From assembly GCA_049322255.1 (NCBI GenBank), contig JBMORE010000135.1, positions 1 to 64,000 on the forward strand: a stretch of DNA of 64,000 nt, written 5' to 3'. Positions 27,001-30,000 of the stretch are shown here, in pieces. Numbering within the stretch: the first letter of the stretch is position 1; each line of letters begins with the position of its first letter. Source of the stretch: Myxococcota bacterium (lineage in GTDB: Bacteria; Myxococcota; Myxococcia; Myxococcales; Myxococcaceae). The position numbers were made by a program.

Positions 27001-30000
27001 GCAAGGTGAGCCAGGCGAAGAGCGATTTGAGCGACAAGGCGGTAGGCCGTTGCGTGGAGGGGCAGATTCGGGCCTTGCGTTTCCCTCTCCACACCGACCG
27101 GGAAGTCAGCCTCACCTTGCCCTTCCGGTACACCATCAAGCGCTAACCCCCACTCCCCCTAGGAAAGGGTTGGGGTGAGGGGTGCAGCTACAGCTCCCGC
27201 CGAGCGGACAGCGCGCGCGCCAGCGTCGCCTGGTCGGCGTACTCCAAATCTCCTCCCATCGGCAGTCCCTGGGCGAGCCGGCTGATGCGCAAGCCCAGCG
27301 GTTTGAGCAGGCGGGTGAGGTAGAGGGCGGTGGCCTCGCCCTCGACGTCCGGGTTGGTGGCGACGATCACCTCCGTCACCTGGCCGCCGTGCAGCCGCGT
27401 GAGCAGCTCTTTGATGCGCAGTTGGTCGGGGCCGATGCCTTCCAGCGGCGAGAGGACGCCGTGCAGCACGTGGTAGCGGCCTTTGAACTCGCGGGTGCGC
27501 TCGAGGGCGAGCAGGTCGGCCACCCCCTCCACCACACACAAGACGCGGTCGTCGCGGCGGCCGTCGCGGCAGAAATGACACAGCGCCTCGTCGGTGAGCG
27601 CGTAGCACTGCTCGCACAGGCGCACCTTGTCCACCACCTCCGTCAGCGCCGTCGCCAGCTCGCGGGCATACTCCTTGGGCGCGCGCAGCACGTGGAAGGC
27701 CAGCCGCTGCGCCGTCTTCTCGCCGATGCCCGGCAGCTTCGCCAGCTGCGCCACCAGCCGGTTGAGCGGGTCGGGGGTCATCTACATCAGCCCGGGAATC
27801 TTCACCCCGCCGGAGATTTTCCCCAGCTCGGCGTTCATCCGGTCGCGGCTGGCGGTGAGCGCGGCGTTCACCGCGGCGGTGACCAAGTCTTCGAGCAGGG
27901 AAGGGTCGGAGGCGTCGACCGCCTTGGGGTCGATTTTCACCGCGCGAATCTCCTGCACGCAGTTGGCGGTGACCGTCACCAGCCCGTCGCCCGACTTGCC
28001 CTCGACGGTCTCCTCGGCGAGCTCTCTTTTTCGCTGCTCGATTTTCTCGGTCAGTTTGTTCGCCTGGCGAATGAAGTAGTTGAGGTCGATGCCTGGCATG
28101 CCACGCAATCTACCTCAATCAACCCTCTTCGGGGGGAGGAGCTTCGCCGCCGTCGACCGGTTGCTCCTCCTCCAACACGCGCACGAATTCAATCTCCCCG
28201 CCCAGGCGGCGTAAGGTGGCCTGCACCGCCGGGTGCGCGCGCACCTTGCCCTCGAGGTCCTTCTCCCGCACCGCCTTCGCCCGTGCTTCCTCCTCGGCCA
28301 GGGAGCTGGGGGCCGGGGTGTCGGCGGGTGCCTCGATGATGCGGGTCGGGCAGCGAAAGTGGTCGGAGAGCGCCTTTTCGACGAGTGGGCGCGCGGTGCC
28401 GGTGACGGTGGCGCGGTGAAAGGCGGCGTCGCGGGGGAAGGCGAGGGTGACCGCGCCCGGTTCGAGCTTCACCAGCCGGCCGAAGCCGAGCGATTTACCG
28501 TGGCGTGCCGAAACCGCCTTCACCGCATTCACCGCCGCGCGCCACTCCCCCTCTCCTTTTGGGAGCGGGTCGGGGTGAGGGGCGCCCACCCAAGGAGCAC
28601 CCGCCAAAGGCGTCTCACGCTCAGGCGCGAAAGCTCGGCGCCGCGGAGCGACCTCCGGGCGCTCCGGCAGATGGCTTGGTGTCGGTGGCGCTTTGGCCTT
28701 GGGCGAGCCGTTCGACCTTGGCAACCAACTCGGGAATAGAGGCGGCCGGGGCCAGCTGCACCGCCTTGAGCAGGGCCATCTCCAGGGTGAGCTTGGGCTG
28801 GGCAGCGCGGGAAATCTCCCAGACGACGCCATGCACCACGTCGAAGATGCGCGCGAGCTGAGCGGGATTTGCCTCTTGGGCAAGGGTGGCCACCGCCTTC
28901 TTGTCGCTGTCGGCGAGCTCGGCGGGAGGCTCGCCCACCGCCTGGGCGACGAAGACGTGGCGTATCTGGAAGGCAATCTCCTCGGCCAGCCGGCGCAGGT
29001 CCACCCCGCGGTTGAACACTTCGTCGACGGTAGAAAGAATGGTCTTGGCGTCGCGCCGCACCAGCGCTTCGGCGAAGGCGTGTACCACCGTGCGGTCGAT
29101 CGCTCCCAACGCCTCGGCCACCGCCTCGTCGGAGGGGTTGGGCCCGCACGCGGAGAGGATTTGGTCCATCAAGGAGAGCGCGTCGCGCATGCCTCCCTCG
29201 GACTGACGCACCACCATGGAGAGCGCGCGGTCGGACAAGCCCGCATCTTCGGCGGCGGAGATTTCTTTCAACCGCGTGAGCATGCGCGCACCCGAGATGC
29301 GGCGGAAGTTGTGCCGCTGGCAACGGGAGAGAATGGTGTCGGGCAGCTTGTGGGGCTCGGTGGTGGCAAAGATGAACTTCACGTGCCCCGGGGGCTCCTC
29401 GAGCGTCTTGAGCAGCGCGTTGAACGCCGCCCCCGAGAGCATGTGCACCTCGTCGATGATGTAAATCTTGTGCCGGTCGCGCTGGGGCAGGTACTTGGCG
29501 TTTTCGCGAATCTCGCGCACGTTCTCCACGCCGTTGTTGGAGGCGCCGTCGATCTCCGCCACGTCCACGCAAGTGCCGGCGGCGATCTCGGTGCAGGCCT
29601 GGCACTTTCCGCACGGCTCGACGGTGGGCCCCTTTTCGCAGTTGAGCGCCTTGGCCAAAAGCCTCGCCGCCGTCGTCTTGCCCACGCCCCGCGGGCCGCT
29701 GAACAAATAGGCGTGCGCCACCCGGTCGAGCTTGAGGGCGTTCTCGATGGTGCGGACCACGTGCTCCTGGCCGGTCATGTCCTGAAACGTCTGGGGCCGC
29801 CACTTGCGCGCGAGGACGAGGTAGCTCATAGGAGGTCGCCAAGCTAACGGATGGCTTCCGCCCCGTCCACGATCAGCGTGCGACGAGTTGGCAGGAGGAG
29901 CCACCGGTGAGACTTGATGCAGGCACGCTGTCGTCTCCCCCGTCGACGTCAGAGAAAGATACCCTCAACAGACCGCCATCCTCGACGAATTGAACGCTCC

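Follow-up and report, generated by a model that had tools for sequence, protein, structure and literature searches.

To our knowledge, few chromosomal bacterial genes need a +1 frameshift, the textbook case being prfB, in which an internal Shine-Dalgarno (SD) sequence lies next to the E site at CUU_UGA. A slip of tRNA-Phe from UUU to UUC is established for influenza PA-X (UCC_UUU_CGU; PMC3498833) and, in bacteria, for FseA of a Mesorhizobium ICE (msi172-msi171), where 4–13% of ribosomes shift (PMC4755241). In dnaX of E. coli, tau is the zero-frame product and gamma results from a −1 shift at A_AAA_AAG, with an SD 8–11 nt upstream and a stem-loop on the 3′ side. Other dnaX genes consist of two ORFs, gamma being encoded in the zero frame and tau produced only by a change of frame just past domain III (PMC3711429; PMC5009743); all 17 such genes published by Antonov et al, 2013 (PMC3711429) are of the −1 type, 12 of them with runs of 7–10 A's. 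According to PMC5009743, Thermus obtains the tau/gamma pair by transcriptional slippage on a homopolymer of ~9, with transcripts of mixed length, and Caulobacter by proteolytic formation of gamma.

The window analyzed here (64,000 nt, positions 1 to 64,000 of contig JBMORE010000135.1 from a member of the Myxococcaceae) contains a dnaX gene that shares the published two-ORF layout and differs from it in direction and signal: the frame change is +1 (66 of 68 family loci), −1 being found only in five loci of the sister family and in L226, and the junction holds UUU_C with a conserved 5′ element instead of an A-run of 7–10. Only three T's are present, unlike the Thermus homopolymer, and, tau not being encoded in one frame, the pair cannot stem from proteolysis. 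An earlier note on this DNA had presented the arrangement as the reverse of that in E. coli; the layout itself was already in print (Antonov et al, 2013), whereas neither the +1 form of dnaX nor the cassette described below was found in the literature (Sharma et al, 2011, or a supplementary file of Antonov et al, 2013, might mention myxobacterial dnaX). Judged from comparative sequence analysis, the long, polymerase-binding form of DnaX in this family is most likely made only via a forward slip of one base at the conserved UUU-C. If so, an entire family relies on a +1 shift in a core replication gene to obtain its polymerase-tethering subunit, apparently also in the model organism Myxococcus xanthus, and the dnaX annotation of more than 100 genomes would need correcting. 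The tau/gamma pair would then be reached by yet another route, independent of those already known, which argues for selection on the production of both forms. With less than 50 nt, the cassette would also be a conserved example from nature of an RNA element that stimulates +1 shifting from the 5′ side, such stimulators being known mainly from engineered hairpins.

The dnaX gene is split over two frames

As the earlier note had claimed, dnaX is distributed over two frames. ORF1 runs from ATG to TGA on the minus strand, and the linker and C-terminal domain in the +1 frame match the remainder of the same NCBIfam model (PRK14965; E 2e-15 for the C-terminal region). The features are as follows:

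28621..29829, minus strand: dnaX ORF1, zero frame (ATPase domains I–III, 402 aa, ~43.5 kDa, gamma-sized; PRK14965 1-390; TIGR02397 above cut-off)
28119..28631, minus strand: +1 frame from UUC, tau-specific linker and C-terminal domain (PRK14965 392-576)
28122..28553, minus strand: tau C-terminal domain, KH-like alpha/beta core and C-terminal helices (Pfam, structure model)
28660..28666, minus strand: 5′ arm of the putative stimulator stem (97.4% of cells paired; 4/7 pairs changed on both sides)
28651..28656, minus strand: GGAGGU, complementary to the 16S anti-SD ACCUCC, within the 9-nt loop (28651-28659)
28644..28650, minus strand: 3′ arm of the stem (pairing and covariation analysis)
28633..28643, minus strand: spacer, constant in length, its sequence C-rich and free to vary (ungapped alignment)
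28628..28632, minus strand: predicted shift site UUU_CG, Phe400 (TTT-C 61/61, CGN 60/61)
28621..28623, minus strand: zero-frame stop TGA ending gamma (position and identity vary among relatives)
~28549..28583, minus strand: copy of a dispersed genomic repeat inside the linker, not closing the +1 frame
27782..28099, minus strand: ybaB/ebfC, which follows dnaX in the usual dnaX-ybaB-recR operon (TIGR00103)
27188..27781, minus strand: recR (TIGR00615)

In the +1 frame, no stop occurs between 29168 and the one at 28119, and neither a second dnaX nor a second C-terminal domain was found in the genome by tblastn. A shift at UUU would produce a tau of 569 aa (~61 kDa, predicted) rather than the ~575 aa given before, and the repeat in the linker, previously taken for a half copy, is nearly complete; it belongs to a dispersed unit, and 125 similar copies were counted in the genome. 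The narrow interval claimed for the shift does not follow from this genome, where the +1 frame has no stop over the 183 codons that precede the ORF1 stop; it does follow from relatives, in which the closest +1 stop precedes UUU by 14 codons (L160 and L169) and the ORF1 stop three codons after it.

The match to PRK14965, the recognition of Pfam DnaX_C in 29/66 and of DUF3646 in 11/66 aligned members, and the fused form present in relatives argue that the C-terminal domain is homologous to the C-terminal region of tau. It was modeled with a pLDDT of 94.9. The link of this predicted fold to solved tau structures is weak: Foldseek matched the E. coli tau C-domain (5fku_E) at E 0.04, with nothing under E 0.001, and when PDB sequences were searched with the C-domain profile, DnaA domain I ranked first (E 8e-4) and a tau chain appeared only at E 0.3. 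By homology, the domain would be expected to bind the alpha subunit of Pol III.

The C-terminal domain keeps its phase across the family

Where the domain was visible, it lay in the +1 frame relative to ORF1 in 57/58 loci and in 9/10 further family loci (L001, a duplicate of L133, was left out), and the assignment of gamma to the zero frame and of tau to a +1 change inside the cassette is thus supported on a larger sample, in which the loci, stemming from kin, do not count as independent; the two trees computed were quick trees with SH-aLRT support only. This phase, together with a stop-free linker, holds for linker lengths from 26 to 1289 nt; between the ORF1 stop and the C-domain, 81 stops occur in frame 0 and 63 in frame +2, and a single one in frame +1 (24,246 nt, 58 loci). 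In the linker of two family loci of one genus, L169 and L199, the frame changes once more, at a different point in each, owing to either an error or a real lesion.

That the C-terminal domain is instead a separate protein, with its own start or by translational coupling, the cassette serving pausing, mRNA stability or the like, would agree with the start that gene callers place in the +1 frame (the 156-aa call here), with ORF1 being filed at NCBI as a stand-alone 402-aa protein, and with the presence, in 56/57 loci, of a +1-frame ATG, GTG or TTG somewhere from the upstream stop to the domain. No start position is conserved, however: L122 lacks any start over the whole interval, 6/58 loci lack one from UUU to the domain, and an SD-like tetramer precedes any start in just 20/57. 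Separate synthesis would also leave the fixed phase, the stop-free linker and the invariant UUU-C unexplained, and in other families of the order and class the domain is in one frame with the ATPase in 21/25 loci (the rest being three cuts by contig ends and one ambiguous case). We therefore consider separate synthesis very improbable, although slightly less so than the other rivals.

A cassette conserved at the nucleotide level

The hairpin, its GGAGG loop and TTTCG were found at the positions reported before, and conservation across the family now extends to 61/61 loci. In all 61 aligned loci (48 genera), the cassette is ungapped and consists of a 6–7-bp stem with GGRGGU in its loop (GGUGGU in one case), 12 nt, and an in-frame UUU_C. 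Five positions of the loop motif, G-G-[A55,G5,T1]-G-G-T, are invariant; GGAGGU is complementary to the anti-SD of this genome's 16S rRNA (3′ end on contig C149) and ends 18 nt before UUU. In 60/61, the spacer ends in C, this base being the third of the E-site codon.

Conservation is at the level of nucleotides. Among 169 amino-acid-conserved degenerate codon columns of ORF1, only the cassette's GGA, GGA, GGT and TTT have a commonest codon ending in T or A, and the rare codons GGT and TTT are invariant only here; unlike TTT at the shift site, the other seven conserved Phe columns use TTC. Twenty cells of the stem alignment have changes on both sides, a number reached in 0/500 shuffles, and only 39–50% of cells are paired with slid partners. 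A 37-nt pattern of the cassette had one match each in 119/122 family genomes, this one included, and none in 178 others; the three genomes missing it also lack a dnaX match. No cassette was found in viral contigs, and no Rfam family matched it. No conserved 3′ stimulator was found at the +1 loci, where the z score of downstream folding has a median of ~0 and is below −2 in 2/61.

That the loop might be a CsrA-binding GGA hairpin was rejected, as CsrA was not found in 5/5 genomes searched (the control gave a signal in 3/14) and the A of the loop is replaced in 6/61.

The sister family and a distant lineage

In the sister family, eight loci need +1, with the same geometry and NNC_UUU_C, and five need −1, all with C_CCU_UUY in heptamer phase; the phase of the U-run thus tracks the frame of the C-domain. 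Three of the −1 loci have a 3′ stem 6–7 nt downstream, and L219-L221 combine an XXXYYYZ heptamer with a 3′ stem-loop as in E. coli. The +1 geometry recurs in a distant lineage (L225 and L311), and an in-frame UUU followed by C lies at the overlap in these two as in 8/8 sister +1 loci. By comparison, among 90 records of long single-frame dnaX, GGRGG was present at cassette distance in 0/19 in-frame TTTC. L311 was the one dnaX among five matches of a metagenome scan with the L225-type pattern; the other four were unrelated and discarded as chance. L226, of the same phylum, is −1 and of the published A-run type. Such +1, −1 and fused states in neighboring lineages show how frameshift signals get rewired.

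How the frame may be changed

Very probably, one mRNA gives rise to gamma in the zero frame and to tau by a +1 ribosomal slip of tRNA-Phe from UUU to UUC, promoted by the 5′ stem/SD element. Ribosomes staying in frame would terminate after 402 codons and release gamma, while some of them, when peptidyl-tRNA-Phe occupies UUU at codon 400 and CGN is in the A site, would slip forward so that the tRNA sits on UUC, and continue through the Pro/Ala-rich linker into the C-terminal domain. The slip would be promoted from behind the ribosome, by an internal SD hexamer able to hold the 16S anti-SD; the hexamer sits in the stem loop, and the 3′ arm, having just left the ribosome, would refold 11–12 nt 5′ of the P site. 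Moving from UUU to UUC improves the pairing of tRNA-Phe(GAA), the Phe tRNA found in this genome. Whether the shift occurs at UUU_C or at the stop had been left open; the former is favored, since UUU-C never varies and keeps its distance from the hairpin, whereas the stop, placed two codons after TTTCG in the earlier note, is the third codon after UUU in 49/61 loci, the fourth to ninth in 12/61, and varies between TGA, TAG and TAA. A −2 shift was rejected, since the two bases before UUU vary and would give no Phe codon.

Upstream duplexes can stimulate +1 shifts of 70S ribosomes (PMC6321510), where the effect of hairpins was observed only without RF2 and at a stop codon; in eukaryotic tests, it was halved when the distance went from 2 to 5 nt (PMC3639245). 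Compared with known stimulators, the distances here are long, which counts against the proposed mechanism, and CGC is not known to be decoded slowly. Minimal UUU_CG sites yield ~1%, which is perhaps too low for tau; the stem/SD-stimulated shift at UUU_C is presumed to supply enough of it for replication. In M. xanthus, a Tn-seq list of uninserted genes contains ORF1 and no gene directly downstream, which says little because gyrase and the alpha and delta subunits are also missing from it.

A change of frame in the transcript rather than on the ribosome is conceivable, if the hairpin, lying ~12 nt behind the RNA 3′ end, made RNA polymerase pause and the enzyme skipped one U or added two. Pause hairpins are at a similar distance from the RNA 3′ end as the hairpin is from the site here. 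Thermus dnaX uses slippage, which stem-loops can stimulate (PMC5009743), and the sister family has both +1 and −1 layouts, a combination read by Antonov et al as a sign of transcriptional realignment. Still, the site offers just three T's and a hybrid region that is variable and GC-rich, the codon phase of UUU is fixed, and the −1 loci, with their proper XXXYYYZ heptamer and, in three cases, a 3′ stem, bear a ribosomal signature. Moreover, RNA-seq of a relative (locus L193; one raw-read run, 1,679 reads, ~89x at the site) revealed continuous transcription with no indel listed at the site, where listing began at 3 reads and 1%, the library was partly stranded, and slippage under ~4% is below detection. 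Transcriptional slippage thus appears very unlikely. Ten reads begin at L193:2552, next to position 2551 with its strain mismatch, and this was taken as clipping.

There is similarly little chance that a ribosomal shift at UUU_C is driven by the nascent peptide or by a fold in cis of GGAGG with CUUUC, instead of stem refolding and the anti-SD. Gly-Gly-Arg-Ser occupies the positions 8 to 5 residues before Phe, Gly-Gly is kept at cassette distance in all three +1 lineages, and a nascent-peptide stimulator was proposed for FseA; yet synonymous positions are fixed, GGT in 61/61 and the first Gly never being GGC, though GGC makes up 67% of Gly codons. The cis fold would explain the flanking invariant C's, but its duplex is weak (−3.7 kcal/mol, compared with −10.7 for pairing with the anti-SD), and the ribosome covering it would unwind it.

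The hairpin and the nearby stop are reminiscent of bypassing and prfB, and the DK1622 record of M. xanthus with an identical ORF1 is annotated "truncated"; nevertheless, bypassing, a stop-driven shift and a sequencing or pseudogene artefact hardly merit consideration, as neither a landing site nor any sequence 3′ of the stop is conserved in the 61-locus alignment, the stop itself moves and changes, and sequencing error is excluded by the recurrence of the break in 48 genera and in the RNA reads and contigs from four runs.

A more far-reaching version of the preferred ribosomal slip is speculative and, in our estimate, unlikely to hold in full: GGAGGU, paired with the anti-SD and stacked on the stem, would be a new class of 5′ stimulator, an H-type pseudoknot completed in trans by rRNA, allowing a high-efficiency slip without a stop or hungry codon, and the device would have arisen or been acquired at least two times in the phylum and been re-tuned to −1 once by single-base changes. 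The geometry behind this version is a 3-nt first loop and a 6-bp helix with no gap; such a fold would put tension on the 12-nt spacer and so drive the slip of tRNA-Phe.

Comparison with known shift sites

With E. coli dnaX, the locus shares the gene, the pair of products and an upstream SD-like element. The frame roles are reversed, however, the shift is +1 with neither heptamer nor conserved 3′ structure, the SD is 18–19 nt away and inside a hairpin loop, and the E-site codon varies. Like the slip proposed here, that of FseA occurs in a bacterium and takes tRNA-Phe one base forward, from UUU to UUC, where ORF1 is about to end, with no stop in the A site and a G-rich stretch upstream. In contrast to this core replication gene, FseA is a low-level noise filter on a mobile element, and it has a conserved Trp-Gly 4 codons upstream, where a covarying stem and GGAGGU lie 8 codons upstream here (no upstream Trp was present in the alignment tail examined). 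The resemblance to PA-X includes the preference for CGN (NNC_UUU_CGN in 59–60/61 loci), although PA-X is decoded by eukaryotic ribosomes at ~1% with no known structure, and its E-site UCC occurs in only 2/61 loci here. Like prfB, the locus would combine a chromosomal +1 shift with an internal SD; it differs in having no stop in the A site (3–9 codons after UUU), an SD ending 18 nt upstream, and no evident feedback. The prfB +1 frameshift is also present in this genome (contig C149).

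The two frames of dnaX are consecutive parts of one tau and are split throughout the family

The zero-frame part of dnaX (ORF1) and the frame carrying the tau-specific linker and C-terminal domain overlap in the window as follows:

29829-28621, minus strand: dnaX ORF1, 402 codons (ATG at 29829, TGA at 28623-28621)
29168-28119, minus strand: stop-free +1 frame

ORF1 matches positions 1-390 of the NCBIfam tau model PRK14965 (578 positions) and the +1 frame matches positions 392-576, which identifies the two frames as consecutive parts of one tau. The zero-frame product has 402 aa, and a shift at codon 400 is predicted to give a product of 569 aa. 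Neither a second dnaX nor a further copy of the C-terminal domain was found in this genome. Downstream of dnaX lie ybaB and then recR; the closest named loci among the matches listed belong to a Myxococcaceae MAG and an Archangium MAG (77%).

A dnaX match was obtained in 142 of the 151 genomes of the family searched, and 60 loci were fetched, with each of 47 genera represented; together with this genome they form the main set of 61 loci from 48 genera. The C-terminal domain lay inside the locus in 58 of these; 57 of them have it in the +1 frame, after a linker of 26-1289 nt that is open in that frame. Over the 58 linkers, stops numbered 81 in frame 0, 63 in the +2 frame, and one in the +1 frame. 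Eleven additional loci of the family (domain visible in nine, +1 in eight) and a named Archangium locus (L002, also +1) bring the total to 66 of 68, bearing out the claim of the earlier note that dnaX is split, with its C-terminal domain in the +1 frame, throughout the family. The two exceptions (L169 and L199, of one genus) keep the conserved nucleotide cassette near the end of ORF1, and each has one extra frame change in the linker, at different places; that of L169 is a single C missing from a C-run. Five congeners are intact, and the extra changes are either assembly errors or lesions.

A nucleotide cassette near the ORF1 stop

The 61 loci, anchored on an in-frame TTT close to where ORF1 ends, aligned without gaps over 42 nt, every sequence being different; the cassette, too, is kept across the family as previously proposed. 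Counted upstream from this TTT, a 6-bp stem pairs -33..-28 with -18..-13 (a seventh pair is present in 52/61), and its 9-nt loop ends in GG[A/G]GGT at -24..-19 (GGTGGT in one locus). GGAGGU is complementary to the 16S tail of this genome. The stem is followed by 12 free, C-rich bases and an invariant TTT-C; C precedes the TTT, and CGN is the next codon, in 60 loci each. Pairing held in 97.4% of 427 stem cells, and both sides had changed in 20. None of 500 shuffles reached the observed covariation, a test that is inflated by related sequences, and slid partners paired in only 39-50%.

Phenylalanine in the body of ORF1 is encoded by TTC 565 times and by TTT 46 times, and among 169 conserved degenerate columns, a T- or A-ending codon was preferred only at the four of the cassette, which indicates conservation at the level of the RNA. 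A 37-nt cassette pattern matched exactly once in each of 119 of 122 family genomes (the unpublished G048 being counted here only) and in none of 178 genomes from elsewhere in the phylum; in the three family genomes lacking it, dnaX was not matched either. No sequence conserved across the 61 loci was found 3′ of the ORF1 stop, and no Rfam family matched the cassette. The split and the cassette are real and under strong selection.

Probable site and direction of the shift

If the site is common to all loci, the shift has to fall downstream of the closest preceding +1 stop, which is 14 codons ahead of the TTT (L160 and L169), and upstream of the ORF1 stop. The latter is the third codon after the TTT in 49 loci and the fourth to ninth in 12 (TGA in 52, TAG in six, and TAA in three); because its distance and identity vary, the stop codon was rejected as an A-site trigger. 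The only single-tRNA re-pairing available in every locus is that of tRNA-Phe(GAA) from UUU to UUC. The same slip produces influenza PA-X, at about 1% and with CGN preferred in the A site (PMC3498833, in part), and occurs at 4-13% in the Mesorhizobium gene for FseA (PMC4755241, in part). UUU_Ynn is rated especially prone to +1 shifts in bacteria in the relevant part of Atkins et al (PMC5009743). The dnaX shift most likely works like these two.

Slippage of RNA polymerase could also place the domain in frame. Four public RNA runs, one consisting of raw reads, were mapped to the relative L193 (L193:1300-3900). The raw-read run contributed 1,679 reads and covered the cassette at about 89x, and ORF1, linker, and C-terminal domain were of similar depth; the library was only partly stranded, and some reads may be DNA or antisense. 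The only indel listed was a 9-nt strain difference in the linker, where a joint of net +60 nt was also seen, both being multiples of three. None was listed at the UUU with a threshold of three reads and 1%, which sets a limit of about 4%, and the 40 rows shown of 65 contained no substitution within the cassette. Polymerase slippage at tens of percent is therefore an unlikely source of tau, with levels below about 4% escaping this assay. Synthesis of the C-terminal domain as a separate protein from its own start is likewise unlikely: start codons occupy no common position, none lies between the UUU and the domain in 6/58 loci, L122 lacks any start in the whole open interval, and a start with a Shine-Dalgarno (SD)-like tetramer is absent in 37/57.

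Profile searches identified the domain as that of tau (DnaX_C matched in 29/66 members), and its confident structure model is similar to DnaA domain I, with a weak resemblance also to the C-terminal domain of E. coli tau bound to Pol III alpha. Given what is established for the E. coli holoenzyme, the domain is predicted to bind alpha, and tau is predicted to be essential here. The Myxococcus xanthus DK 1622 protein ABF90692.1, identical to ORF1 of L193, is recorded as "DNA polymerase III, gamma and tau subunits, truncated". In the Tn-seq list of uninserted DK 1622 genes, as far as the source is accessible (PMC11046052), the 1,209-nt dnaX is included and the gene directly downstream is not; gyrase, alpha, and delta are missing from it too, so that the list counts neither for nor against the proposed shift.

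The sister family and distant lineages

dnaX is also split in the sister family (f4; 14 loci from 13 genomes, one cut by a contig end). Eight loci are +1, with a different stem, the same GGAGG at -24, and NNC_UUU_C. The other five (L213, L216, and L219-L221; genera g81 and g82) are -1, and each reads C_CCU_UUY, phased like an XXXYYYZ heptamer. In L213 and L216 the upstream stem is retained and its spacing from the Phe codon is unchanged (a 5′ hairpin in g81), whereas L219-L221 have lost it and carry a stem 6-7 nt downstream (a 3′ stem in g82; folding z -3.2, -0.7, and -1.8). The phase of the U-run tracks the frame of the C-terminal domain, as expected if ribosomes slip at this run. A quick tree places the -1 loci in one group (support 87) inside f4 (99); the predicted direction of recoding is flipped within this one family.

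Other families of the order and class contributed 25 loci: tau was in one frame in 21, three were cut, and in L206 (G151:C25) the frame ended at 432 aa near the contig end with no C-terminal domain found. By score the nearest outgroup is f8, one of these single-frame families; its tau of 634 aa is fused and has no cassette (L171/L223, G196), either by loss or as the ancestral state. The MAG G215, with 6% contamination, holds two copies of dnaX (L211 and L222), probably because bins were mixed.

Further out, 60 loci were all single frames of 508-867 aa. Seven others had been chosen for short open frames, and five of these were cut. L226 (G230:C12), from the single genome of its family, has dnaX in two ORFs with nine A's; its domain lies in the -1 frame, as in the published poly-A type. 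In L225 (G272:C139, near 9560-9600) the split is +1, a hairpin loop carries GGAGGT at -24, and the sequence at the TTT is CCC_TTT_CGA. The ORF1 of L225 falls within f14 (support 100), away from f1 and f4, and other f14 members examined have a fused dnaX unless cut by a contig end. A metagenome scan yielded L311, a relative at 95% identity in which cassette and phase are unchanged; four other pattern matches were dropped as not dnaX. GGRGG was at the cassette distance from none of 19 in-frame TTTC in 90 records (some duplicates) of long single-frame dnaX. The L225/L311 cassette may have arisen by convergence, come in with a short transferred segment, or survive from an old cassette that was lost repeatedly.

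How the 5′ element may act

On 70S ribosomes, +1 shifts are promoted by internal SD pairing and also by 5′ hairpins that refold, in both cases near the E site (PMC6321510, in part), and in the eukaryotic tests described in part of PMC3639245 the influence of the hairpin declines over a few bases. In this cassette the distance to the P-site codon is 11-12 nt from the end of the stem and 18 nt from that of the SD. Both ranges are exceeded, so the element copies neither stimulator. The fixed spacing suggests that it acts while UUU is in the P site. The emerging 3′ arm might zip up, strip the SD from the 16S tail, and free the held mRNA forwards; the f4 stem, which can extend into the last SD bases, fits this option better. 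Alternatively, the stem and the SD:anti-SD helix might stack into a pseudoknot completed by rRNA, for which the family loop (3 nt, then six pairing bases abutting the stem) has the right geometry. The Gly-Gly of the nascent peptide may also play a role in the shift.

Relation to known dnaX recoding

Compared with the E. coli shift, the proposed shift would serve the same purpose with frames and direction reversed. Two-ORF dnaX with tau made by recoding was reported by Antonov et al (17 genes, all -1, 12 with A-runs; PMC3711429, in part), in whose supplementary files, all but one searched, neither Myxococcus nor Stigmatella is named. The pertinent part of Atkins et al (PMC5009743) repeats the two-ORF class and lists slippage in Thermus and proteolysis in Caulobacter. 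No +1 dnaX or myxobacterial case was found in the literature searched, whose reach leaves out most subscription papers. This dnaX fits neither published class.

Other observations

A prfB-like SD plus CTT TGA C site (G000:C149; pattern match only) suggests that the ordinary RF2 +1 frameshift seems to be kept in this genome. Between serS and dnaX, window positions 31875-32989 hold the SRP RNA, genes for five tRNAs, and one resembling tadA; the stretch from the SRP RNA to dnaX contains a further two ORFs, at about 29873-30481 and 30509-31876. A dispersed repeat of ~38 nt, a pyrimidine tract followed by a short hairpin with a purine arm, was counted 125 times genome-wide, with these copies in the window:

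6721-6760: dispersed repeat
27150-27182: dispersed repeat
28549-28583: dispersed repeat, in frame within the tau linker
31974-32010: dispersed repeat
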